Made by a program: the position numbers and the translations under genes. The notes under the pieces were generated by a model. That model saw only the letters and a program-made list of their open reading frames with translations. It did no database searches and had not been told where the DNA came from. Shown here piece after piece: positions 1 to 18,831 of a stretch of DNA of 64,000 nucleotides (its first letter is position 1; each line of letters begins with the position of its first letter). This stretch comes from Escherichia coli. GTDB lineage: Bacteria > Pseudomonadota > Gammaproteobacteria > Enterobacterales > Enterobacteriaceae. The DNA is taken from assembly GCF_050320075.1 (NCBI RefSeq), contig NZ_CP190022.1; one strand, given 5' to 3'.

Positions 1-380
1 GCCGTGCCCTTCACCAGGATGAAACCGATCCGGAACTGATGTTTCAGGATTATGAGGGATTCCCGGGGAATATGGCCTCTGAATGTCATATCAACTGGGC
101 CTGGGTTGAAGGCTTCCGCCGGGCACGGGATGAAGGCTGCGAAGAGGCTTATCGTCTCTGGGTGGATGATACCGGTGAGACGGATTTTGACAGCTTCCGC
201 GATGCCTGGTGGGGCGAGGCTGACAGTGAGGAGGCTTTTGCGGTTGAGTTCGTCAGTGATACCGGCCTGCTGGCTGACGTGCCGGAGACGGTGGCGCTCT
301 ATTTTGACTATGAGGCGTATGCGCGGGATTTATTCCTGGACTCCTTCACCTTTATTGACGGTCATGTGTTCCGTCGGTGA
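1..380 (+). CDS. ardA: Antirestriction protein ArdA, C-terminal part (5-prime end lies outside the window)
   Basis: Reading frame is open from position 3; acidic C-terminus ...ELMFQDYEGFP...YFDYEAYARDLFLDSFTFIDGHVFRR resembles ArdA family proteins as I recall them; position ~5 kb from oriT fits an IncI leading region. Confidence 0.7.
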   Translation, partial: RALHQDETDPELMFQDYEGFPGNMASECHINWAWVEGFRRARDEGCEEAYRLWVDDTGETDFDSFRDAWWGEADSEEAFAVEFVSDTGLLADVPETVALYFDYEAYARDLFLDSFTFIDGHVFRR

Positions 381-734
381 TTTACTCCCCCGCTCCGGCG
401 GGGGTATGGCCTGCCGGGCCGCCGGAAAACCCTGGCAGGCTTACGCCTGCCTGAAATACAGGAGGGCCGCGCCTGCGGCGCTGCCCTTCCTGCCCGTCAT
501 GGTGTGAGGCATTTTTCTGTTTTGTCGTTTCTGTTGTTCTGATGCCCGGAGGCGGGGACACCCTTCGGCTCCCGGCTGCCTGGCGGCATCCGGTCGTCGG
601 CCCGACTCCGACAGGCAGCTGCTGGCGCACCCGCCAGTCTCCGCCGAACCCGCTGGCGCGGTTTCGGGCTGCCGCTACGGTCCGATGTCTGAAAAACCAG
701 GCCTGCAGCGACCGTTCCGGTCGCGCCGCCCCTG

Positions 735-1085
735 TCGCGCCGGAAACGGCGCTCCCTGCACACCTGACGGTGTGTAAGGCCACTGCGCCTGATGGCGCAG
801 TTGTCTGCCCTTCCGCCGCCACCCCTGCGGCCTGTTTCCCGCTGTGGACTTTCCGGGGGCTGAAGCGGCCACAACACGTCTCAGCCGTCCAGGGGAAGAT
901 GTACCAGCCACAAAACTTTTTGCCGCAGGCGTCAAAAACTTTTGCGTCTGCCCCCGGACAACTGCCCCGTGCCGTGGCAGTCGCTGCCCCATCGGAAAGG
1001 TCCACTGCGGGGAGAAACCCCGAAGAAGTGGACGGCAGAAGGGGCTTTCGCCCCTCCGGGGAATAACCGGTCGGCCCGGCGACCT
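735..1085. promoter_or_regulatory. Frpo/ssi-like leading-region repeat, copy 1 (putative single-strand promoter)
   Basis: About 350 bp, roughly 85 percent identical to 3632-3990; GC-rich, many short inverted repeats (e.g. acacctgacggtgtg, ctgcgcctgatggcgcag); ends just before the start codon at 1110. Confidence 0.5.
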
Positions 1086-1109
1086 GATTCAGCAGAAGGA
1101 GACGTTTTC

Positions 1110-1544
1110 ATGACAGTCAGCAGCACGATTTCCGTTTTTTGCCGAGACGGGGTGTTCCGTACCGTTTACTGCCACCTGCACGGTGAGCCGACCTGGAACG
1201 GTCGCATCCTGCATACCCACTATGCCACCGGTCAGCTGGCCGAAGCCCTGGTTGAACACGGAGATATCCGTTGCCTCGGTCCCCGTTGCGACAAACCCGC
1301 CGGGCATACGCTTCAGAACCCGGTGGACGGTGTGACGGCTTATTACGGACGTGACAGTGGTTTCCGGATGGACAGTGAAGCGCGTGAGTACCGCTCTTTC
1401 AGGGAGGCTATTGCCACTGAAAGCACAGAAGAGGTGCGCTTCCATTATGTGTTCATCGACGGCTACTGGAAGGTGATGTACCGCACGCCGGAAGGCTGGA
1501 AGATGAAAGCGCTCGCGCTGGCACTGCGTCGCTGTCCGGAATGA
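1110..1544 (+). CDS. Hypothetical leading-region protein, 144 aa, Cys/His-rich
   Basis: ATG at 1110 preceded by aggagacg RBS; ORF track frame 942-1544 trimmed to the RBS-supported start; directly downstream of Frpo-like repeat 1. Confidence 0.55.
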   Translation: MTVSSTISVFCRDGVFRTVYCHLHGEPTWNGRILHTHYATGQLAEALVEHGDIRCLGPRCDKPAGHTLQNPVDGVTAYYGRDSGFRMDSEAREYRSFREAIATESTEEVRFHYVFIDGYWKVMYRTPEGWKMKALALALRRCPE

Positions 1545-1636
1545 AAAAAAGCAGGGCGATAAACCCTGCCTTTCTCCGCCGGCGCTTCCCCGTACGGAAG
1601 TCCGGCATCTCATTCACTAACTATGGAGATTATGCT

Positions 1637-1903
1637 ATGAGGCCATCAATTATCTTCGCAACCGCCGAGTATGTAAAGCGTCTGCGTGAAGAGTGCCGGC
1701 GGGAGAACAAACCCCTGCACCGCCATACCCGCTTCAGACGCCAGGAACTGGCACCGGATGAGATTAACCCGGACGTCCTGGCGATGGGCGGTCATATCGC
1801 CAGACGCTGCAGTGAGCGGAAGCGGGTGCGTATCCCCGCCATGAAAGTCAGCGAATGGGGCCACCTGCTCCGCGCGCTTGAAATTGAGCGGGTCTGCCAC
1901 TGA
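1637..1903 (+). CDS. Hypothetical basic protein, 88 aa
   Basis: Internal ATG of ORF 1541-1903 with ggag 8 nt upstream; Arg-rich. Confidence 0.4.
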   Translation: MRPSIIFATAEYVKRLREECRRENKPLHRHTRFRRQELAPDEINPDVLAMGGHIARRCSERKRVRIPAMKVSEWGHLLRALEIERVCH

Positions 1904-1967
1904 TTAACCCTTGCCGTCTGCCTGTGCAGGCGGCAGGATACGTTCAGACATCTCACCAGGAGGAACC

Positions 1968-2906
1968 GTGAGTAAGAAGAAAACCACCACGACGCCCACG
2001 CCGCATGATGCCGCGTTCCGGTCGTTCCTGGCGAACCCCGACGTCGCCAGAGATTTTCTGGAACTGCATCTTCCGGCGGAGTACCGGCAGTTGTGCGACC
2101 TGTCCACGCTGAAGCTGGAACCCGCCACCTTTGTTGAGCCGGACCTGCATCAGTACGCCAGCGATATCCTCTGGAGTGTGAAAACCACCGGGGGTGAAGA
2201 CGGCTATATTTATACGCTCATCGAGCACCAGAGCACCGAAAATCTGTACATGCCTTTCCGCATGTTACGTTACAGTGTGGCGGCGATGCAGAGACATCTG
2301 GAGCAGCACAAAACATTGCCACTGGTGATTCCGGTGCTGTTCTATCATGGTGAGCGCAGCCCGTACCCGTACAGCATGAACTGGCTGGACTGTTTTGAGG
2401 ATCCGGCGCTTGCGGCTAAAATATACACAAAGCCGTTTCCGCTGGTTGATATCACTGTCGTTGATGACAATGAAATCATGAACCATCGCCGGATGGCCGC
2501 ACTGACGCTGCTGATGAAGCATATCCGCCATCGTGACATGATGGAGCTGCTGGACAAACTCCCGCAGGTCATGGTGGAAATTTCAGACGAGCAGGTGCGT
2601 GTTCTGATTCATTACATCGTTAACGCAGGGGACTCTGTATCACCGGAATTTATGCGGGCGCTGGCTGAGCGTCTGCCGCAGCATGAGGATAAACTGATGA
2701 CTATTGCCGAACGTCTTGAGCAGCAAGGAATACAGAAAGGAATACAGCAGGGAATACAGCAGGGAATACAGCAGGGAATACAGAAAGGCCGCATGGAGGA
2801 GAAGCAGGATATTGCGCGTCAGCTTCAGAAAACGGGAATGCCATCTGCACAAATCTGTCAGATCACCGGACTTTCCGAAGCTGAACTGAAGAACATCACT
2901 CACTGA
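1968..2906 (+). CDS. Rpn-family recombination-promoting nuclease (YhgA-like, PD-(D/E)XK) with C-terminal GIQQ repeats
   Basis: GTG at 1968 after aggagg RBS; N-terminal PHDAAF(R)SFL...DFLE...HLP and central IEHQS motifs typical of the YhgA/Rpn family; C-terminal QGIQKGIQQGIQQGIQQGIQKG repeat. Confidence 0.7.
   Translation: MSKKKTTTTPTPHDAAFRSFLANPDVARDFLELHLPAEYRQLCDLSTLKLEPATFVEPDLHQYASDILWSVKTTGGEDGYIYTLIEHQSTENLYMPFRMLRYSVAAMQRHLEQHKTLPLVIPVLFYHGERSPYPYSMNWLDCFEDPALAAKIYTKPFPLVDITVVDDNEIMNHRRMAALTLLMKHIRHRDMMELLDKLPQVMVEISDEQVRVLIHYIVNAGDSVSPEFMRALAERLPQHEDKLMTIAERLEQQGIQKGIQQGIQQGIQQGIQKGRMEEKQDIARQLQKTGMPSAQICQITGLSEAELKNITH
2727..2786 (+). repeat. Five tandem 12-bp units (ggaatacagcag / ggaatacagaaa) inside the Rpn gene
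   Basis: Directly visible tandem repeat; encodes (GIQQ/GIQK)x5. Confidence 0.85.
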
Positions 2907-2920
2907 TGAGAACCACAAAG

Positions 2921-2944
2921 CCCGGCAAAATGCCGGGTTTTTTT
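2921..2944 (+). terminator. Rho-independent terminator after the Rpn gene
   Basis: cccggcaaaatgccggg hairpin followed by ttttttt. Confidence 0.6.
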
Positions 2945-2968
2945 GTCAGCAGGAGCAGAGCAAACAGC

Positions 2969-3151
2969 ATGACGATTGCAGAACGTCTTATACAGAAAGG
3001 TTTCGACGAAGGTTTTAAGAAAGGTGCGCTTGAAGTGGCGCGGGAAATAGCCTGCCGGCTTCGGGATATAGGCTGGTCGCCGGAACGGATTCAGGAGGTC
3101 ACGGGACTTTCCGGTGAAGAACTGAAAAAACTGTTTCCTGATGAGCTGTAG
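2969..3151 (+). CDS. Small protein (60 aa) resembling the Rpn C-terminal domain (YpaA-like)
   Basis: ATG at 2969 after aggag; MTIAERLIQKG...EVTGLSGEELKKL parallels the C-terminus of the upstream Rpn protein (MTIAERLEQQG...QITGLSEAELKNI); the longer track ORF from 2906 reads through the terminator and is rejected. Confidence 0.5.
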   Translation: MTIAERLIQKGFDEGFKKGALEVAREIACRLRDIGWSPERIQEVTGLSGEELKKLFPDEL

Positions 3152-3181
3152 CCTGGCATTCTGCCAGGCTGTGAATCACGC

Positions 3182-3433
3182 TCACACATCCTCTGCCGTT
3201 TCCCCCAGTTCATTTTCCAGTCGCCTGATGATATCTGCCTTACGCATCCCCTGCATGTGAGGCAGCAGGTCACGGACTGAAAGAGCCTGGGTGGTCCTCC
3301 AGACGGTGACGTCCACCTGTTCCGCATTTTCCCAGGCGTGCCATGTTCTCTGCGTCACGCCAAATTCTCTGGCCGCTTTTTCGCGTGACCAGAGCATGCT
3401 TTTTCGCCAGATTCGCAGTTCCCAGCCGGTCAT
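3182..3433 (-). CDS. Helix-turn-helix DNA-binding protein (83 aa)
   Basis: EKAAREFGVTQRTWHAWE looks like a helix-turn-helix segment; aaaggtg RBS before the ATG at 3433. Confidence 0.55.
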   Translation of the reverse strand: MTGWELRIWRKSMLWSREKAAREFGVTQRTWHAWENAEQVDVTVWRTTQALSVRDLLPHMQGMRKADIIRRLENELGETAEDV

Positions 3434-3450
3434 AAAACACCTTTGAAAAA

Positions 3451-3532
3451 GTGAAAAAACTTCACTTTATTTTATCATCATAATCATCAAATCAGCGCGA
3501 TAAATAAGTGTGAAAAAGTGAAGAAATTTCAC
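3451..3532. promoter_or_regulatory. Two GTGAA-N5-TTCAC palindromes in the AT-rich promoter region of the HTH gene (putative operators)
   Basis: gtgaaaaaacttcac at 3451-3465 and gtgaagaaatttcac at 3518-3532, both with aaag/cttt flanks. Confidence 0.4.
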
Positions 3533-3631
3533 TTTTTTTTGATTGTGGGTGTCGTGCTGTTTTCTCTGTTTTCACCTGTGCGGGAGTGGTGTGCCAGTGA
3601 CCACCACATGCCATTGTTGTGCCGTCGTTTT

Positions 3632-3990
3632 TCTTCAGTCGCGCCGGATGCGGCGCTCCCTGCACACCTGACGGTGTGTAAGGCCACTGCGCCTGATGGC
3701 GCAGCTGTCTCTGCCTGTCTGCCGCCGCACTGCGGCCCGTTTTCCGCAGACGGACTTTCCGGGGGTACATACACGACCACATCCCGTTTCAGTCGTCCAG
3801 GGGAGAGATGTACCAGCCACAAAACTTTTTGCCGCAGGCGTCAAAAACTTTTGCGTCTGCCCCCGGACAACTGCCCCGTGACGTGGTGAGCGTCCCCCGT
3901 CGGAAAGGTCCACTGCGGGGAAATCCCCGAAGACCCGGACGGCAGAAGGAGCTTCGCTCCTCCGGGAAATGACCTGGCTGACCCGGCAGT
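3632..3990. promoter_or_regulatory. Frpo/ssi-like leading-region repeat, copy 2
   Basis: Imperfect direct repeat of 735-1085, ending just before the start at 4011. Confidence 0.5.
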
Positions 3991-4010
3991 CGTGACGATG
4001 AGGAGACAAT

Positions 4011-4862
4011 GTGATGAATCAGACTTTACCCACTGCTGACCTGAATACTGCCGGCACGACAGATGTTATTCCGTCTGTGGCTATCGACCGCATCATCGCG
4101 CAGCGTAACGAAGGTATTGCACTGTTCATGCAGGCGATGGAATGCCTGGCGACAGCGCGCAGGATTCTGCTCGATGCTTCCGGTGACATTTTTCTCTACG
4201 GGTTTGAAGACTGCGTGACTGATTCCGTTCGTCGCATGGATAAACCGGAAGAAGCGAAAAGGAATATCACCCGTCTTGCCGACCGGAAAATCTGGGACCG
4301 CCTGATGACAGATACGGGCATGTACACCTTCATGAGTTCATGCCAGCGTGATGAGTGGAACAGCCAGCTGATGAGCGACACCTGTCCTGAAATCATCCTG
4401 GACAATGTACTGGCAACATTCCGCCATCTGAATGCCAGCAAAATGCAGACATTTGAACAGGGACTGATTGATGTCTACCGGAAATTGTCATGGGATTACA
4501 GAACCAATAATCCCTGCCGTCTGGGCAAGAGAATCATTATTGAAAACCTGCTGTACCGCTGGAGTAACGGGCGTGTGACGCTGGACTGCAGCGGGCGGGA
4601 GGCACTGGATGACCTGGTACGTCCGTTTTATCTGCTGGATGGGCGCAACATTCCTGACTTCCGGAGCAGCATCGGGGCGCAGTATGGTGAATTTCTCGGG
4701 AACGGCGACAATGTCGGTAAGCTGTTAGAAGGGGAATATTTTACGGTGCGTGGCTACCAGAAAGGGACCGTACACATTGTCTTTAAGCGTTCTGACCTTG
4801 TTGAAAAACTGAATGATATTATTGCACGGCATTATCCTGGTGCATTGCCGCCACGAGTCTGA
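4011..4862 (+). CDS. Hypothetical leading-region protein, 283 aa (family not recognised with confidence)
   Basis: aggag RBS at 4001-4005, GTG 4011 / ATG 4014; preceded by Frpo-like repeat 2; followed by a hairpin with a T-run at 4875-4903. Confidence 0.55.
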   Translation: MMNQTLPTADLNTAGTTDVIPSVAIDRIIAQRNEGIALFMQAMECLATARRILLDASGDIFLYGFEDCVTDSVRRMDKPEEAKRNITRLADRKIWDRLMTDTGMYTFMSSCQRDEWNSQLMSDTCPEIILDNVLATFRHLNASKMQTFEQGLIDVYRKLSWDYRTNNPCRLGKRIIIENLLYRWSNGRVTLDCSGREALDDLVRPFYLLDGRNIPDFRSSIGAQYGEFLGNGDNVGKLLEGEYFTVRGYQKGTVHIVFKRSDLVEKLNDIIARHYPGALPPRV

Positions 4863-4947
4863 TTAAAAAGAAAAGCCCTGGTATTTATGCCGGGGCTTTT
4901 TTTTCTGTAATCATCATAATCTCAGAACATGATGTGACATTGTCACA

Positions 4948-5283
4948 TCAATTGTTGTTCATATCGATGCCATCTTTTCTGCCTGAATCTGTCTTTTTAG
5001 GTGCTGTTTTAGAGGAAGAACGGCGGGATGGTTTTTTCGATTCTGCTTCCCGAATAATGTCACGAAGTGCCTTCTCTCCTACTTCATACCCTGCATTTTT
5101 GAGCGTGTCACGAACATCTGCCAGTGTATAACCCTTTGTCCTTACCAGGACAATGATGTCATCACGAATGGCATCAAGAAAATCACGCAATGTTTTCCGT
5201 TGAGCGGTGAGGTCCGGCAATTCCGATAAGGCAGATTTTGCCAGCTGGATGTCATCATCTGAGTAAAATTTTTTAGAAGCCAT
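4948..5283 (-). CDS. Hypothetical protein (111 aa) with Lys/Ser/Pro-rich C-terminal tail, divergent from nikA
   Basis: ATG at 5283 with ggagag RBS; tail SKKPSRRSSSKTAPKKTDSGRK suggests nucleic-acid binding. Confidence 0.45.
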   Translation of the reverse strand: MASKKFYSDDDIQLAKSALSELPDLTAQRKTLRDFLDAIRDDIIVLVRTKGYTLADVRDTLKNAGYEVGEKALRDIIREAESKKPSRRSSSKTAPKKTDSGRKDGIDMNNN

Positions 5284-5329
5284 TAGCACTTTCTCTCCGT
5301 TTCATGTTGAAGTCTGATTTTATCATCAA

Positions 5330-5515
5330 AAACTGACTCCTGGCAGGGCTGCGCCCTGCCTCTGCCGTCTGCATAAGACTATGATGCACAAAAATAACAG
5401 GCTATAATGGCCTGAAAAACGGGACAGGATGTGGGAATGTCGGACCGCGCACGCGCACTCAGACATTCCCCACCTGGTCAGGGCTTTGCCCCGACACCCC
5501 GGTAAGGAGCAGACC
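5330..5515. other. Origin of transfer (oriT) region, approximate
   Basis: Immediately upstream of nikA; inverted repeats ggcagggc-tgc-gccctgcc (5343-5361) and gggaatgtc...gacattccc (about 5433-5471); nick site not identified. Confidence 0.45.
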
Positions 5516-5848
5516 ATGAGTGAGAAGAAAACCCGAACGGGCAGTGAGAACAGGAAGAGAATTGTAAAATTCACGGCGAGATTCACGGAGGATGAGGCTG
5601 AAATCGTAAGAGAAAAAGCGGAGTCAAGTGGACAGACGGTTTCAACATTTATACGAAGCTCTTCACTGGATAAGGTGGTTAACTGCCGTACTGACGACCG
5701 TATGATTGATGAGATTATGCGTCTTGGCCGCCTTCAGAAGCATCTGTTTGTGGAGGGAAAACGCACTGGTGATAAGGAGTATGCAGAGGTTCTTGTTGCC
5801 ATTACTGAATATGTCAATGCTCTGCGAAGAGACTTAATGGGACGCTGA
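5516..5848 (+). CDS. nikA: NikA relaxosome accessory protein (ribbon-helix-helix)
   Basis: aaggag RBS; MSEKKTRTGSENRKRIVKFTARFTEDEAEIVREKAE matches my memory of R64 NikA; about 110 aa; directly followed by the relaxase. Confidence 0.85.
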   Translation: MSEKKTRTGSENRKRIVKFTARFTEDEAEIVREKAESSGQTVSTFIRSSSLDKVVNCRTDDRMIDEIMRLGRLQKHLFVEGKRTGDKEYAEVLVAITEYVNALRRDLMGR

Positions 5849-5859
5849 GATAACTGCTG

Positions 5860-8580
5860 ATGAATGCCATTATTCCGCACAAAAGACGTGACGGCAGGTC
5901 TTCCTTTGAAGACCTGATTGCGTACACGTCTGTGCGGGATGATGTGCAGGAAAATGAGCTCACAGAAGACAGCGAAATCAAGAGTGATGTCCCTCACCGC
6001 AACCGTTTCAGACGGCTTGTTGATTATGCAACACGCCTGCGTAACGAAAAATTTGTCTCCCTGATTGATGTGATGAAAGACGGCAGTCAGTGGGTAAATT
6101 TCTATGGCGTAACCTGTTTCCATAACTGCAATTCACTGGAAACAGCTGCTGAAGAGATGCAGTACAAGGCGGACAAAGCTGTTTTTTCCCGTAATGATAC
6201 AGACCCCGTTTTCCACTACATTCTTTCCTGGCCTGCGCATGAAAGCCCGCGTCCTGAGCAGCTTTTTGACTGTGTGCGTCACACACTGAAATCTCTTGAA
6301 CTCTCAAAACATCAGTACGTGGCTGCCGTTCATACGGACACGGATAATCTGCATGTGCATGTTGCCGTGAATCGTGTACATCCTGAAACTGGTTATATTA
6401 ACTGGCTTTCCTGGAGCCAGGAAAAACTCAGTCGTGCATGCCGTGAACTTGAACTTAAGCACGGATTTGCGCCGGATAATGGCTGCTTTGTGCATGCACC
6501 CGGCAACCGTATTGTGCGCAAAACAGCGCTGGTACGTGAGCGCCGTAATGCCTGGCGACGCGGGAAAAAGCAGACGTTCAGGGAATATATTGCGCAGATG
6601 TCGATTGCCGGGCTGCGTGAAGAGCCCGCACAGGACTGGTTATCTTTGCATAAACGGCTGGCCAGTGATGGTCTGTATATCACGATGCAGGAAGGGGAAC
6701 TGGTGGTGAAGGATGGCTGGGACAGAGCGCGGGAAGGTGTTGCACTCAGTTCGTTCGGACCGTCATGGACAGCTGAAAAACTGGGGCGGAAACTGGGGGA
6801 ATATCAGCCTGTACCGACAGATATTTTCAGTCAGGTGGGGACACCCGGTCGTTATGATCCGGAAGCCATAAACGTGGATATCCGGCCGGAAAAAGTGGCA
6901 GAAACGGAGAGTCTGAAACAGTACGCCTGTCGTCACTTTGCTGAACGCTTACCGGAAATGGCGCGAAATGGTGAACTGAAAAGTTGCCTGGCTGTACACC
7001 GTACTCTGGCAGAGGCGGGATTATGGATGGGGATTCAGCACGGGCATCTGGTACTGCATGATGGATTTGATAAACAACAGACACCAGTACGTGCAGACAG
7101 TGTGTGGCCGTTAATGACGCTGGATTATATGCAGGATCTGGATGGTGGATGGCACTCTGTACCGAAGGATATTTTTACTCAGGTTATACCCGAAGAACGA
7201 TTCCGGGGACACAGTATTGGCACTCAGGCTGTCAGCGATTACGAATGGTATCGCATGAGGATGGGCACTGGTCCACAGGGTGCCATAAAGCGTGAACTGT
7301 TTTCCGATAAGGAAAGTCTGTGGGGATACGCTCTTATTCAGTGCAGGAGCCAGATTGAAGAGATGATAGCTGGCGGGGATTTCAGCTGGCAGGCATGTCA
7401 TGAGATGTTTGCGCGTAAAGGGCTTATGCTGCAGAAACAGCATCATGGTCTCGTGATTGTGGATGCGTTTAATCATGAACTGACACCGGTGAAGGCCAGC
7501 AGTATCCACCCGGATTTGACGTTATCCCGGGCCGAGCCTCAGGCCGGGCCATTTGAAATTGCGGCTGCAGATATTTTCGAACGGGTGAAGCCTGAATGTC
7601 GCTACAATCCGGAACTTGCTGCCAGTGATGAAGTGGAGCCCGGCTTCCGGCGCGATCCTGAGCTGCGTCGTGAGCGCCGTGAAGCCCGTGCAGCTGCGCG
7701 GGAAGATTTGCGTGCGCGTTATCTTGCATGGAAGGAACACTGGCGTAAACCCGATTTACGTTACGGCGAACGGTTGCGGGAAATTCATGCTGCCTGCCGT
7801 CGTCGCAAGGCTCATATCCGCGTGCAGTTCCGGGATCCACAATTGCGTAAACTGCATTACCATATTGCAGAAGTGCAACGTATGCAGGCGCTGATCAGAC
7901 TGAAGGAAAATGTCAGGGAAGAGCGACTGGCGCTGATGGCGGAGGGTAAGTGGTATCCGTTGTCCTACCGGCAGTGGGTGGAACAACAGGCGGCGCAAGG
8001 CGACAGAGCTGCAGTGTCACAGCTCCGAGGCTGGGATTATCGCGATCGTCGCTCGCGTAATAAGGATAAAAGACGCACAACTAATGCTGATCGTTGTGTC
8101 GTTCTCTGCGAACCCGGAGGAACGCCACTTTTTAATAATGTTGCAAAACTTGAAGCTCGTCTTCAGAAAAATGGAAGTGTTCATTTCAGGGATACGCGGA
8201 CAGGAAAAAATGTCTGTACGGATTACGGAGATCGGGTTGTGTTCTACCATCACACGGACCGAAATGAACTGGCAGAGAAGCTTGATTTAATTGCGCCAGT
8301 TCTGTTCAGCCGCAACGGAAAGCTTGGTTTTGAGCCGGAAGGTTCATACCAGCAGTTTAATGATGTGTTTGCAGAAATGGTGGCCTGGCACAATGCAGCG
8401 GGAATAACCGGAAACGGACACTTCACCATTACTCGTCCGGACGTGGATTTGCACCGTCAACGCAGTGAGCAGTATTACCGGGAATATATCAGACAGCAGA
8501 CCCGTTTATCGGAGAGCCATGATGATAATTATACGTTACGGCAGGAGAAAACATGGGAGCCACCATCACCTGGAATGTAA
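5860..8580 (+). CDS. nikB: NikB relaxase (MOBP family)
   Basis: 906 aa, start MNAIIPHKRRDG; relaxase His motif region HTDTDNLHVHVAVNRV; size and position as in R64. Confidence 0.85.
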   Translation: MNAIIPHKRRDGRSSFEDLIAYTSVRDDVQENELTEDSEIKSDVPHRNRFRRLVDYATRLRNEKFVSLIDVMKDGSQWVNFYGVTCFHNCNSLETAAEEMQYKADKAVFSRNDTDPVFHYILSWPAHESPRPEQLFDCVRHTLKSLELSKHQYVAAVHTDTDNLHVHVAVNRVHPETGYINWLSWSQEKLSRACRELELKHGFAPDNGCFVHAPGNRIVRKTALVRERRNAWRRGKKQTFREYIAQMSIAGLREEPAQDWLSLHKRLASDGLYITMQEGELVVKDGWDRAREGVALSSFGPSWTAEKLGRKLGEYQPVPTDIFSQVGTPGRYDPEAINVDIRPEKVAETESLKQYACRHFAERLPEMARNGELKSCLAVHRTLAEAGLWMGIQHGHLVLHDGFDKQQTPVRADSVWPLMTLDYMQDLDGGWHSVPKDIFTQVIPEERFRGHSIGTQAVSDYEWYRMRMGTGPQGAIKRELFSDKESLWGYALIQCRSQIEEMIAGGDFSWQACHEMFARKGLMLQKQHHGLVIVDAFNHELTPVKASSIHPDLTLSRAEPQAGPFEIAAADIFERVKPECRYNPELAASDEVEPGFRRDPELRRERREARAAAREDLRARYLAWKEHWRKPDLRYGERLREIHAACRRRKAHIRVQFRDPQLRKLHYHIAEVQRMQALIRLKENVREERLALMAEGKWYPLSYRQWVEQQAAQGDRAAVSQLRGWDYRDRRSRNKDKRRTTNADRCVVLCEPGGTPLFNNVAKLEARLQKNGSVHFRDTRTGKNVCTDYGDRVVFYHHTDRNELAEKLDLIAPVLFSRNGKLGFEPEGSYQQFNDVFAEMVAWHNAAGITGNGHFTITRPDVDLHRQRSEQYYREYIRQQTRLSESHDDNYTLRQEKTWEPPSPGM

Positions 8581-15109: not shown

Positions 15110-15733
15110 ATGCAGGAACATATTGATTATCAGATTGAGAAATATCAGTTCAGGGCCAGGAATGAGTCTCCGCGACTGATGCGCCAGTGGGCAGATGTCA
15201 TGCGTGAATGCCGTGATACCGGAGCAGGAGCCAGGGAGCGGCTGCGGATTGCCTTACTTAATGTTGATTATGTGACCAGTTTTGAGCTGCCGTTTCGTCT
15301 GCTGTTAACCCGGACACCGCAGATGATTGACAGCATGCGGCGGGAATGGCAGCTCAGCCAGAAAAAAGTCGTCTTCAATGAGCGGCAGCGGGGATGTGTA
15401 TACAGTCTGCAGAATGACTTATCCGGCGTGCCGGATAGCTTCAGTTACAGTCTTGCGACGCGAATACGGCGGATGGACTGCTATGGCATGACGACGCGTT
15501 GTTTTACTGATATCGCCGGGCAGGTTAAAGCCCCGACGGCACGGCTGAAACTAGCGCTGGAAAGCGGGTTGCTGGTAACGGCACTGGATGGCCTGTTCTG
15601 GCTGGGAACTCAGCGAATTGCAGCTGATGTGCAGAGACTGCGTCAGTCAGGTATGGTTATAGTCACCCGGGAAGTTGAGGTATCAGACTCCCTGACCGGA
15701 ACCACCAGACTGGTTTCTGCCTACACACTTTAA
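15110..15733 (+). CDS. Hypothetical protein (207 aa)
   Basis: Divergent from nuc across an AT-rich promoter region; no family recognised. Confidence 0.5.
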   Translation: MQEHIDYQIEKYQFRARNESPRLMRQWADVMRECRDTGAGARERLRIALLNVDYVTSFELPFRLLLTRTPQMIDSMRREWQLSQKKVVFNERQRGCVYSLQNDLSGVPDSFSYSLATRIRRMDCYGMTTRCFTDIAGQVKAPTARLKLALESGLLVTALDGLFWLGTQRIAADVQRLRQSGMVIVTREVEVSDSLTGTTRLVSAYTL

Positions 15734-15820
15734 AGCACAGGAGGAATCTTTGTTACCGTATTCGCACTGATTCTGAAATTTACCATTGTTTACCGGGACA
15801 GATTACAGACAGGATATTTT

Positions 15821-16276
15821 ATGCGAGATAAATCAGAAGTATTAACCGGAGCGCAGAAAAACAGATTTGGTCTGATTCTTTATATTATACTATTATCAGT
15901 TGTTTATATATTGATAACAAGACTTAATCTCACAACCACATATTATTCGCTGTATTCATCTCTGGATGAGAATTCACAGGTGACGGAGTATTTTATAATA
16001 TCCATAGCTACCTTTCTTTTTCTGGCGGCTTTATGTTTGTTCTTCATTTATTCTTTCTTTAAACGGAAAAGAGTTGTCGGGAAATTACTTCTGTGTATTT
16101 ATATTCTTTATATATCACACTATGCTATCACTTTTGTTTATTGTCTTTATGTTGTCGGTGCTGAGTGTATGGCAACCGGAAAGATTGAGCATATTTTGAT
16201 TGATATTATTATAGCCATGCTTTCTCTTTCGTATGTTTGCCTTTCCGGGAGGGCAAGACATATTTTTGTTAACTAA
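15821..16276 (+). CDS. Hypothetical polytopic membrane protein (151 aa), low GC
   Basis: Several hydrophobic helices; AT-rich codon usage unlike the backbone. Confidence 0.45.
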   Translation: MRDKSEVLTGAQKNRFGLILYIILLSVVYILITRLNLTTTYYSLYSSLDENSQVTEYFIISIATFLFLAALCLFFIYSFFKRKRVVGKLLLCIYILYISHYAITFVYCLYVVGAECMATGKIEHILIDIIIAMLSLSYVCLSGRARHIFVN

Positions 16277-16454
16277 ATGTATTCTGAGTGTTTTATGGTT
16301 ATGAGGCCTTCATCGGGTTATGCGAATAATCTGGTTCGGGGAGCAGTTGCTGTAAGCACAGAACCTGATAATATGTAAATCCTGCTGGACAGGGTAGGGT
16401 ATTTTTGTGAACTGTTTCATATAAATATCCATGCGTTGAAATGATCGTCTGTGT

Positions 16455-18011
16455 TTGTACAGGAAAATGACTGGCGTGTCTTGTATTAAAGAAAAATCAA
16501 AATATACTTTTGAGAGAGCAAAACAGTTTTATTTTATGTTGTGGTGTAAAGAGTCACTGATTTATCTGTTGTTTTCTGTGCTTGTTACATGGTGTTGCGG
16601 ATATACAGTGAAAAACACCCTGGGGAATGTGCTTATATTGTTCCTGATGTTGTTGTTGGGGCGGCAGAATGTTATTTCAGCAACGTGTGTCTGTATCTTT
16701 CTTTTGTTAAGTGCATTCTATGCTCCGGTTGGGATGATTTACGGAAAAATAAACAACAGTTTTATTGCGTCTGTAATGCAGACAAATCTAAATGAGGCAG
16801 GTGAATTTATCACAGGCATACCTGTTCTTTATTTTATTGTTTCACTGATTATTGCTGCTTTTACATTCTGGTTCTGGCGTAAGCGTGATAAAAGCCACCA
16901 GGGATTTATCTTTCTGTTGTTCTTTATCGTATTGTCAGTAAATGCATGGCCAAAACGTATGGTTACGAATGTAATGACAGGGATAGCTGAAACCAGAGAA
17001 GAAATGATGCGATATGAATCGCTGAAACACAATCAGAAAGATTCATGGGATATTGTGAATGTGGAGAAGAAATATAAAACCATAATTATCGTAATTGGTG
17101 AAAGTGTCAGACGGGATTATCTTTCTGTTTATGGGTATCCTTTGCCGACAACACCATGGTTGAATTCTGCTCCGGGTATATTTATTAATGGGTATTTCTC
17201 CGCAGCTCCGAATACGATAGGTTCACTCAGCAGAACACTGACTCTTGATTACACTGAAACAGGTAATCCGGGTAATAATATTGTTACGCTTGCCAGAAAA
17301 GCCGGATATGAGACGTGGTGGATATCAAATCAGGGCTCTTTAGGGCGACATGATACGCTGATTTCTGTCATCGCCGCCAATGCGGATAAGAAATATTTTC
17401 TTAAGGAAGGGAGCTCTTCTTCCCGTCGCATTGATGATGAAGATATGCTTCAGTATGTCAGGGAAGCTGTTAATTCGTCTTCTCCAAAAGTGATTTTCAT
17501 TCATATGCTGGGGTCCCATCCTAATCCCTGTGACAGACTTTTTAATGATGCACAGCCGTTCAGGGAATTATTCGGAAATAAAGTATCCTGTTATTTATCA
17601 ACATTGCTTAAGCTGGATCGGTTTCTTCAGGCAATTTATAACATGACGACAGAGCATGGCGATGATTTTGCCATGCTGTATTTTTCTGATCATGGGCAAT
17701 CCGTCACTTCAGACAGCACCCCTGTGCATCATGCGCCAGGTTTGCGTTCGGGATACGATGTACCTCTCATGATGATGGCCAGTGATATTACTGAGCACCA
17801 CCTCAATCATGTGCATATCAGTGCACGTCGTTTTCCCGAGATTTTTCAATGGATCACAGGGATACAAACCAAAAATCTGCCGTTAAGTTTTTCTTTGTTA
17901 CAGAATGATTTCGCTGAAAGTGTTTCTGTATTCAATGGTGAACGTGACGTTCCGGTAATGTCTTTGCCAGAAGAGCCGATACTGACCGGAAATGCTGAAT
18001 CAGAAAAATAA
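16455..18011 (+). CDS. Phosphoethanolamine-transferase-family (sulfatase-fold) inner membrane protein
   Basis: N-terminal TM helices, then IIIVIGESVRRDYLSVYGY, FIHMLGSHPNP and FSDHGQS motifs resembling EptA/LptA-type enzymes; low GC; exact start uncertain. Confidence 0.6.
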   Translation: MYRKMTGVSCIKEKSKYTFERAKQFYFMLWCKESLIYLLFSVLVTWCCGYTVKNTLGNVLILFLMLLLGRQNVISATCVCIFLLLSAFYAPVGMIYGKINNSFIASVMQTNLNEAGEFITGIPVLYFIVSLIIAAFTFWFWRKRDKSHQGFIFLLFFIVLSVNAWPKRMVTNVMTGIAETREEMMRYESLKHNQKDSWDIVNVEKKYKTIIIVIGESVRRDYLSVYGYPLPTTPWLNSAPGIFINGYFSAAPNTIGSLSRTLTLDYTETGNPGNNIVTLARKAGYETWWISNQGSLGRHDTLISVIAANADKKYFLKEGSSSSRRIDDEDMLQYVREAVNSSSPKVIFIHMLGSHPNPCDRLFNDAQPFRELFGNKVSCYLSTLLKLDRFLQAIYNMTTEHGDDFAMLYFSDHGQSVTSDSTPVHHAPGLRSGYDVPLMMMASDITEHHLNHVHISARRFPEIFQWITGIQTKNLPLSFSLLQNDFAESVSVFNGERDVPVMSLPEEPILTGNAESEK

Positions 18012-18626: not shown

Positions 18627-18824
18627 CAACAACATTATAGTAGCCCGATGACGGCCGAAAGGCAATGGAGGGGCTGCGATGCCACAACGAACGTTTTTAA
18701 TAATGTTAATCGTCGTCTGTGTGACGATACTGTGTTTTGTCTGGATGGTGAGGGATTCGCTTTGCGGATTTCGTATCGAGCAGGGAAATACAGTGCTTGT
18801 GGCAACGTTAGCCTACGAAGTTAA
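18621..18824 (+). CDS. pndC: PndC (Mok-like frame overlapping pndA)
   Basis: Reading frame overlapping pndA in a different frame, as in hok/mok loci; start chosen at an internal Met. Confidence 0.35.
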   Translation: MPQQHYSSPMTAERQWRGCDATTNVFNNVNRRLCDDTVFCLDGEGFALRISYRAGKYSACGNVSLRS

Positions 18825-18831
18825 ACGTTAA
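18679..18831 (+). CDS. pndA: PndA, Hok-family type I toxin (50 aa)
   Basis: Hand translation MPQRTFLIMLIVVCVTILCFVWMVRDSLCGFRIEQGNTVLVATLAYEVKR; Hok signature SLC...R...G...V.A.LAYE; hairpin ggcggcaggaaatctgccgcc follows. Confidence 0.85.
   Translation: MPQRTFLIMLIVVCVTILCFVWMVRDSLCGFRIEQGNTVLVATLAYEVKR

Follow-up and report, generated by a model that had tools for sequence, protein, structure and literature searches.

Which genes does a conjugative plasmid express first in a new host, and what do their products do there? The question is raised by the beginning of a 64,000-nucleotide stretch of Escherichia coli DNA (contig NZ_CP190022.1, assembly GCF_050320075.1; hereafter the window), where two uncharacterised open reading frames (ORFs), of 144 and 283 amino acids (aa), lie between the antirestriction gene ardA and the origin of transfer (oriT), each behind a long repeat. 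The original prediction for this locus held that these repeats, of ~350 bp and similar to the Frpo/ssi elements of F and ColIb-P9, serve the early expression of the two ORFs, which would be candidates for anti-restriction, anti-SOS or other establishment functions. The proposed likeness was borne out: the repeats are the actual ssi1 and ssi2 elements, on the correct strand and in the correct orientation to drive the two ORFs. An anti-defence role of both proteins is a plausible hypothesis. The features at the centre of the analysis are these:

732..1080, minus strand: ssi2-type class-1 single-strand promoter/initiation element, a homologue of Frpo (by homology and fold of single-stranded DNA, ssDNA)
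1110..1544, plus strand: 144-aa ORF, first gene of the ssi2 operon, from an uncharacterised phage/plasmid family (ORF list)
3636..3987, minus strand: ssi1-type class-1 single-strand promoter/initiation element, the copy closest to oriT (by homology and ssDNA fold)
4011..4862, plus strand: 283-aa stand-alone DUF4942 protein, sole gene of the ssi1 operon (Pfam PF13708)
5421..5470, minus strand: putative oriT core, consisting of the nick-region motif CATCCTG/T (the slash marks the putative nick; ~5421-5432) and an 18-nt inverted repeat (5433-5470), from the sequence

The repeats are real: they are direct repeats of ~330-350 bp (734-1080 and 3638-3987) that share 86% identity across 354 bp, which is far beyond chance, and they end 24-50 nt upstream of the 144-aa and 283-aa ORFs, both of which were found at the predicted positions (1110-1544 and 4011-4862). 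The class-1 single-strand DNA promoters comprise ssi1, ssi2 and ssi3 of ColIb-P9 and Frpo1 and Frpo2 of F (Masai & Arai 1997; Bates et al. 1999; Couturier et al. 2023; Wen et al. 2025). When the window was compared with the ssi/Frpo reference sequences that Samuel et al. 2024 give in Supplementary file 4, the minus strand at 3636-3964 was identical to ColIb-P9 ssi1 at 325 of 329 positions (98.8%), and the minus strand at 732-1058 was 89% identical to ColIb-P9 ssi2; both repeats also matched F Frpo1 and Frpo2 in BLAST. The ColIb-P9 elements likewise lie between ardA and oriT, with the same ~2.9 kb spacing and the same strand folding, and apart from the 11% divergence of the window copy of ssi2 we found no difference of substance. 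The closest, near-identical relative plasmid has a third copy of the repeat upstream of ssb, which matches the three-element layout already published for the leading region (Benz & Hall 2023, PMC10104558). Thus, both window elements show homology to the reference promoters, a leading-region position, downstream genes templated by the transferred strand (T-strand) and a conserved hairpin, which are among the marks of class-1 single-strand promoters.

As ssDNA, the minus strand of each repeat forms a long imperfect hairpin (-116.3 kcal/mol, z -8.5, for repeat 1 at 734-1080; -105.3 kcal/mol, z -10.0, for repeat 2 at 3638-3987), and none of 100 shuffled sequences folded as well as the real repeats. 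The minus-strand fold exceeds that of the plus strand in stability by ~17 kcal/mol (17.7 for repeat 2) and contains 7-9 G.T pairs, where the plus strand has 1-2. Aligning the window's two copies with the copy at ssb and both F copies showed that 32 of the 120 pairs in the consensus remain paired despite changes on both sides. Like the difference between the strands, this supports selection for the structure on the minus strand. The ColIb-P9 (ssi1-3) and F (Frpo1-2) elements form the same long imperfect hairpin with a conserved unpaired GTnCATnT bulge on its 3' arm. This bulge of 9-10 nt is kept on the minus strand in all five IncI/K and F copies; in the window it is located at 880-900 and 3788-3810, directly below an A/T-rich, nearly palindromic apex, and we suspect that it is a candidate pre-melted -10 region.

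Two side observations concern the same elements. Three small, strongly conserved GC-rich hairpins (e.g., CTGCGCCATCAGGCGCAG, CACACCGTCAGGTGTG and GCGCCGnnnCCGGCGC) flank the main hairpin and lie at the minus-strand 3' end of the elements (734-810 and 3638-3715); priming and protein binding are possibilities for their role. In addition, the GC-rich repeats yield many long spurious ORFs on both strands, at 382-1126 and 3492-4009.

The order in which the genes enter the recipient follows from oriT. Directly upstream of nikA, the minus strand contains the motif CATCCTG/T, which we take to be the nick region from its resemblance to the nick motifs of IncP and IncI plasmids, so that the site itself is placed by motif. 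If this is the nick, its location on the minus strand makes that strand the transferred one, and the lower coordinates would enter the recipient first. This agrees with the prediction that the genes between ardA and oriT enter first, and the putative cargo genes are all on the plus strand, directed to oriT.

Early expression from such elements has been demonstrated on closely related DNA. The leading region of plasmid pESBL-EA11 (pESBL) has 94-95% DNA identity to the first 5.5 kb of the window, and its genes downstream of the elements are the same. RNA sequencing of pESBL showed that six leading-region operons are induced up to ~500-fold at 15 min; the start sites of all six were confirmed by 5' rapid amplification of cDNA ends, and ssi1-3 (class 1, Frpo-like), the strongest promoters, drive three of them (Wen et al. 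2025, PMC12672017). RNA-polymerase-dependent initiation from ssDNA was reported for F through Frpo deletions (Couturier et al.), and Frpo-type transcripts prime complementary-strand synthesis in vivo (2026 preprint). In view of these pESBL and Frpo experiments, the mechanism put forward in the original prediction can be considered established for this sequence family. For the window, we take promoter activity, start sites and early induction by analogy from experiments on 95-99% identical DNA; the analysis itself shows what the elements are, which strand they use, how they fold and how the genes are ordered. The prediction had named ardA of F and ColIb-P9 among the genes with the Frpo-type arrangement, and this part needs correction: ardA and klcA of pESBL are reported to use another, non-Frpo hairpin class (class 2) (Wen et al. 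2025, PMC12672017).

The leading-region islands described by Samuel et al. 2024 have the same gene order, the same T-strand-template orientation and Frpo-type promoters. The elements themselves, how the operons are built, their early induction and the notion that the cargo may act against defence are all already known from published work. The arrangement itself adds nothing new, and the value of the present analysis lies in pinning the repeats to ssi1 and ssi2 and in removing a misleading annotation, 'PndC', from the 144-aa protein.

The 144-aa ORF starts with ATG at 1110, with an AAGGAG Shine-Dalgarno sequence directly upstream. Its product belongs to no Pfam or NCBIfam family and matches only two PHROGs, both of unknown function. 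An exhaustive search placed 1,836 clusters in the family at E <= 0.001. Among annotated phage genomes, homologues occur in enterobacterial jumbo phages, T4-like cyanophages and vibriophages; where we inspected phage genomes and metagenomic contigs, distant members lie within long arrays of small same-strand ORFs, and one relative is found near ArdC genes on a plasmid-like contig. The long homologues have heterogeneous C-terminal tails, with no consistent domain as a fusion partner. The AlphaFold2 (AF2) model has a predicted local distance difference test score (pLDDT) of 96.6, and a Foldseek search of AFDB50 with this model returned uncharacterised relatives only. Sequence-profile searches of the PDB with the 144-aa and DUF4942 families gave nothing credible.

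Residue conservation, counted over 79 members of the 144-aa family, is concentrated in polar positions: Y20, H22, H66, Y79, R81 and D82 each occur in 95-100% of members, D24 occurs in 90%, and the N-terminus follows an M-x-T-R-S pattern. This conserved constellation would suit an active site better than a binding surface. The protein had been described as Cys/His-rich, and by count (5 Cys and 7 His in 144 residues) it is; as a metal-finger signature the description fails, because only H22 and H66 (99-100% of the 79 members) and partly C21 (81%) are conserved, while C11, C55, C60 and C142 are each found in at most 33%. We therefore rejected a zinc-finger reading, since a conserved Cys/His set of three or four ligands is not present.

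In UniRef, at NCBI and in a published table this protein carries the name 'post-segregation killing protein PndC', and Samuel et al. 2024 binned the family as Hok/Sok-related from the database name. The evidence in the window contradicts this label. The ORF list has no hok-like ORF at 1100-2000, and a PndC/Mok, Hok/Sok-like reading was rejected on this ground; the real hok gene of the plasmid is located elsewhere:

18679..18828, plus strand: Hok-family (pndA) toxin gene of the plasmid (tblastn with pESBL Hok/Gef, 92% over 50 aa)

This site is trb-proximal, the same region as the pnd locus of R64, which is placed in the trbABC region in a passage of PMC10286972. Because the real hok gene is 17 kb away and none overlaps the 144-aa ORF, the name 'PndC' is wrong, a misannotation that has been propagated. 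Furthermore, the predicted model is that of a well-folded globular protein, and the protein has phage relatives. Database entries for 'PndC' of 171-251 aa are spurious extensions, an example being a TTG-started 200-aa extension of the window ORF. The 'ydfA' of a paper on the IbfA phage-defence system (PMC12111858) lies in the repA-parA variable region, and we judged it to be an unrelated gene that shares the name.

The 283-aa ORF starts with GTG at 4011, or with ATG at 4014 as in RefSeq (282 aa). PF13708 matches residues 91-276 (E 1.8e-50; model positions 5-189/190), preceded by a helical N-terminal region. The protein is 98% identical to its pESBL counterpart, and its AF2 model (pLDDT 82) has no relative among solved structures. 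Older plasmid annotations name it YdiA or YgfB (table of Samuel et al. 2024). Most of the homologous coding regions in phages are annotated as DNA methyltransferases. In the two that we checked, Marinomonas phage P12026 gp32 and Salmonella phage SSU5_095, DUF4942 is N-terminal and aligns for the greater part of its length (PF13708 E-values 8e-25 and 6.5e-19), followed by a weakly recognisable class-I/N6 methyltransferase half at the C-terminus; the tblastn match to P12026 has 27% identity over 98% of the query. No Rossmann-fold, S-adenosylmethionine (AdoMet)-binding catalytic domain was found in the plasmid protein, which by its sequence appears to be the non-catalytic module alone. The fusion of phage DUF4942 to a methyltransferase half suggests a DNA- or methyltransferase-linked role.

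In F, the oriT-nearest homologous promoter drives YgeA/YgeB (DUF932), whereas in the window it drives DUF4942. A relationship between the IncI cargo and the F cargo behind Frpo1 (YgeA and YgeB/DUF932, F 15571-17260) was considered and rejected, as the comparison showed no similarity; the YgeA/YgeB and DUF4942 families both have a median position of 1 from oriT in the published survey. In Supplementary Table 1 of Samuel et al. 2024, 'PndC' and DUF4942 are listed as families 23 and 24, whose enrichment in leading regions is significant, and Rpn accounts for families 18 and 20 of the top-100 leading-region list; the median gene positions from oriT are 7 for 'PndC', 1 for DUF4942 and 3-4 for Rpn.

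The genes between ardA and oriT had been treated as unknown throughout; this is not correct, since the interval includes an Rpn nuclease with RpnS, a defence/toxin-antitoxin system (PMC10400941), and a helix-turn-helix (HTH) regulator. The remaining features of the two operons and of the segment between them are as follows:

1637..1903, plus strand: 88-aa ORF (coding sequence in RefSeq relatives, 94% aa identity to pESBL)
1968..2906, plus strand: Rpn-family PD-(D/E)XK nuclease, RpnL (TIGR01784, 186 bits against a cutoff of 52; RpnA/RpnB-like models)
2906..3151, plus strand: free-standing RpnS-like small protein, RpnSs (TIGR01784 positions 215-273, E 4.8e-7)
3182..3433, minus strand: 83-aa HTH regulator (RefSeq HTH annotation; phrog_6962, weak repressor match)
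3446..3537, no strand assigned: a pair of AT-rich palindromes, AAAGTGAA-N5/6-TTCACTTT, flanked by the HTH gene and ssi1 (inverted repeat I1, direct repeat D7)
4871..4905, plus strand: predicted intrinsic terminator after the DUF4942 gene (GC stem AGCCCTGG/CCGGGGCT, then an 8-T run)

The 88-aa ORF has no family match in scans with Pfam, NCBIfam, PHROGs and PADLOC and no similarity to F YgeA. In pESBL-EA11 an additional 129-aa ORF (16518-16907) lies between the 88-aa ORF and Rpn, where the window (1903-1968) has none; the content of the ssi2 operon thus varies between close relatives.

RpnL matches the nuclease profile and has an in-frame internal ATG at 2697, likely the start of the RpnS antitoxin, directly before five QxGI repeats that are encoded by 12-nt tandem repeats (family D1, 2721-2800) and differ in number from those of pESBL. 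Profile, internal start and four-residue repeats together identify an Rpn nuclease with RpnS, for which nuclease and antitoxin activity are predicted. RpnSs, the likely true start of which is ATG 2969 (60 aa), shares DNA repeats D12 and D13 with the 3' end of the Rpn gene and is a paralogue of the Rpn tail; it is 81% identical to an annotated small protein of pESBL. Zhong et al. 2023 (PNAS, PMC10400941) described RpnL/RpnS/RpnSs as a toxic nuclease with an intragenic antitoxin, with the same full-length nuclease, internal Met before a C-terminal helical domain, variable repeats and downstream RpnS-like gene; unlike their systems, the one in the window lies within an ssDNA-promoter operon of a leading region. 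The repeats of RpnSs are of the xxGF kind and differ in both type and number from the tail of the adjacent RpnL (QxGI, five copies), and pESBL differs in both as well. By the published rule, RpnSs might therefore not neutralise the adjacent RpnL; as a decoy antitoxin, it might disarm Rpn nucleases that the recipient carries.

The HTH regulator is 100% identical to the pESBL protein. Because its gene is oppositely oriented, the incoming single strand cannot serve as its template. Its position and strand make it a probable member of the Aca6-like HTH family 22 in the survey by Samuel et al. (position 2, strand -1). The palindromes next to it are near-identical copies (3446-3468 and 3515-3537), candidate operators, as we infer, for a shut-off after establishment and double-stranding. 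A short GC hairpin (CCTGGCA...TGCCAGG) at 3152-3168, between the convergent RpnSs and HTH genes, is possibly a bidirectional terminator; there is no T-run on its plus strand.

These elements can be combined into one account. The minus strand would be nicked at oriT (~5425) in the donor and enter the recipient 5' end first, so that ssi1 would arrive within ~1.5 kb and ssi2 within ~4.5 kb. Each element, while single-stranded, would fold into an imperfect hairpin of ~250 nt that mimics duplex promoter DNA, and host RNA polymerase would start on it and transcribe toward oriT with the incoming strand as template. The ssi1 transcript would encode DUF4942 and end at the terminator; the ssi2 transcript would encode the 144-aa ORF, the 88-aa ORF, RpnL/RpnS and RpnSs. 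Both would be transient, and the same transcripts could prime synthesis of the complementary strand. Conversion to duplex would destroy the hairpins and switch the operons off. The HTH gene would be expressed only after this conversion, and its product probably represses residual activity of the duplex promoters through the palindromes at 3446-3537. For the 144-aa protein, our best guess is a small, enzyme-like effector that acts early and whose family is also found in phage early-gene arrays; for DUF4942, it is a module associated with DNA or methyltransferases. At establishment, the two would target the recipient or the incoming DNA, most probably to counter host defences. As a whole, a leading region in which ssi1 and ssi2, two of three class-1 promoters, drive early cargo is very probable, and we are confident in it as the best explanation; the protein functions within it are inferred.

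Several points weigh against this account. No convincing -35/-10 pair was located in either window copy by a linear sigma-70 scan or by a relaxed alignment-aware hexamer scan, and the weak GGGACA-N18-CAAAAT-type matches are confined to the ssb and F copies; the promoter assignment thus rests on homology, not on motif. The 144-aa and DUF4942 proteins match no known anti-defence, SOS-inhibition or other functional family. At 4 of the ~24 most conserved positions, the plasmid clade to which the window's 144-aa protein belongs differs from the consensus of the family (T3V, D24H, S54R and R83S), and Y20, H22, H66, Y79, R81 and D82 are retained; if those four positions are catalytic, the activity of this clade may be changed or lost. 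F has homologous promoters and a homologous orphan methylase and no DUF4942; an obligatory partnership of DUF4942 with a methylase is therefore unlikely. Finally, transposon-directed insertion-site sequencing (TraDIS) of the I-complex plasmid pMS7163B, transferred from K-12 to K-12, did not find the 144-aa and DUF4942 genes among those needed (PMC10286972). Such a screen is blind to functions against defence systems that its recipient does not have.

What, then, do the early proteins do? Leading regions are documented hotspots of anti-defence genes (PMC11541004), as had been assumed for this locus. The remote-homology and structure-prediction checks that had been proposed identified the 283-aa protein as DUF4942 and linked neither ORF to an anti-defence family: neither has a Pfam domain beyond DUF4942 or a match to any solved structure, PADLOC gave one marginal match (E 0.0018), and no sequence or fold similarity was found to ArdA, ArdB/KlcA, ArdC, PsiB, Acr or the like. 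Scans of all ORFs with Pfam, NCBIfam, PHROGs and PADLOC recovered only DUF4942, Rpn and PHROGs of unknown function. That one or both proteins are new counter-defence factors is a tentative idea, and we would not rely on it. If it is right, the 144-aa protein would be the founding member of an enzyme-like counter-defence or host-takeover family shared by phage early-gene arrays and leading regions, and the stand-alone DUF4942, whose gene enters ahead of all others, would add another new anti-restriction factor, one that stems from the half of phage methyltransferases that is not catalytic. The other possible answer, that both are establishment factors with no immunity target and act on host physiology, protection or processing of the single strand, or regulation of transfer, we likewise consider possible but doubtful. 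Similar roles have been proposed for YfjB, YfhA and PsiB of leading regions, and passages of PMC13370423 and PMC10104558 describe other leading-region proteins that act on SOS, host transcription or transfer rate; the fusion of phage DUF4942 to DNA-modifying enzymes would suit a DNA-directed role, and the missing similarity to known anti-defence proteins also speaks for this answer. However, the neighbourhood of ArdA here and of ArdC in a relative fits counter-defence, and members of the 144-aa family are widely found in phages; because phage DNA enters double-stranded and with no conjugative T-strand, a role specific to T-strand processing is unlikely for this family.

Two further explanations were weighed. 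Part of the cargo could be for defence or addiction, with the two ORFs as accessories of Rpn-type systems that protect the new host against phages or rival elements. RpnL with its internal RpnS start and hypervariable four-residue repeats, and RpnSs, do lie between the two ORFs; an Rpn carried by a plasmid protects against phages and acts as a toxin-antitoxin pair (PMC10400941), and the Rpn families are leading-region enriched. Yet the 144-aa and DUF4942 families are widely found without Rpn, F and many relatives are without one or the other, the phage homologues have no adjoining Rpn, and DUF4942 is in a separate operon with a promoter and terminator of its own; we think this explanation improbable. 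It is also improbable, in our view, that the repeats are mainly priming sites for the complementary strand and that expression of the ORFs is incidental and contributes little to plasmid fitness. According to a passage of PMC11541004, ssi elements were originally defined by their priming of DNA synthesis; the in vivo priming by Frpo transcripts, the TraDIS result, and the three small conserved 3'-end hairpins of each element, which have no obvious promoter role, would all fit. Against this, the ORFs follow the elements closely, at 24-50 nt, and have good ribosome-binding sites, they are 98% conserved between plasmids that differ by 5% in DNA, both families are leading-region-enriched in T-strand-templated orientation, and the ssi operons are strongly induced in pESBL. 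Priming and expression are, moreover, not mutually exclusive. The account in which ssi1 and ssi2 serve the early expression of establishment cargo is thus the one that we retain.

On this account, a new bacterium that receives an IncI/K-type resistance plasmid expresses the 144-aa and DUF4942 genes among the very first, and knowledge of their function could expose a step in plasmid establishment that can be blocked, and with it the spread of genes for extended-spectrum beta-lactamases (ESBL) and of other resistance genes. With confident models and no known fold relatives, both proteins are reasonable targets for experiments.

The wider setting of the two operons is well conserved. Judged by its sequence, the window from 1 to 5500 is taken to come from the leading region of a conjugative plasmid of the I-complex (IncK2/Z-type, IncI1-like), at the end close to oriT. 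A megablast comparison with PLSDB matched the 5.5-kb segment to at least 5,000 records; among the matches listed, 1,907 records cover at least 80% of it, and the top one, 98.7% identical, is an IncK2/Z, MOBP, MPF_I plasmid. The proteins are 94-100% identical to those of pESBL, except for Rpn (87.5%) and RpnSs (81%). The gene order is the 3' part of ardA, repeat 1, the 144-aa ORF, the 88-aa ORF, Rpn, the small Rpn-tail-like ORF, HTH (minus strand), repeat 2, DUF4942, the terminator, an ORF annotated as 'MobC' (minus strand), oriT, nikA, nikB and trbC. The two features at the ends of the segment are these:

39..380, plus strand: 3' part of ardA (antirestriction), truncated by the start of the window (PHROG anti-restriction match; ArdA in near-identical plasmids)
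4948..5289, minus strand: 113-aa ORF adjoining oriT, 'MobC' in the annotation of relatives (ORF list, RefSeq)

The Rfam scan of 1-6000 gave nothing besides weak, sub-threshold terminator-like matches, and these coincide with the predicted terminator at 4871..4905. The ardA product is 96% identical in amino acids to residues 42-166 of pESBL ArdA. The 113-aa ORF had no match in the family scans with Pfam, NCBIfam, PHROGs and PADLOC; it is oriented opposite to the leading-region genes and is 99% identical to its pESBL counterpart.

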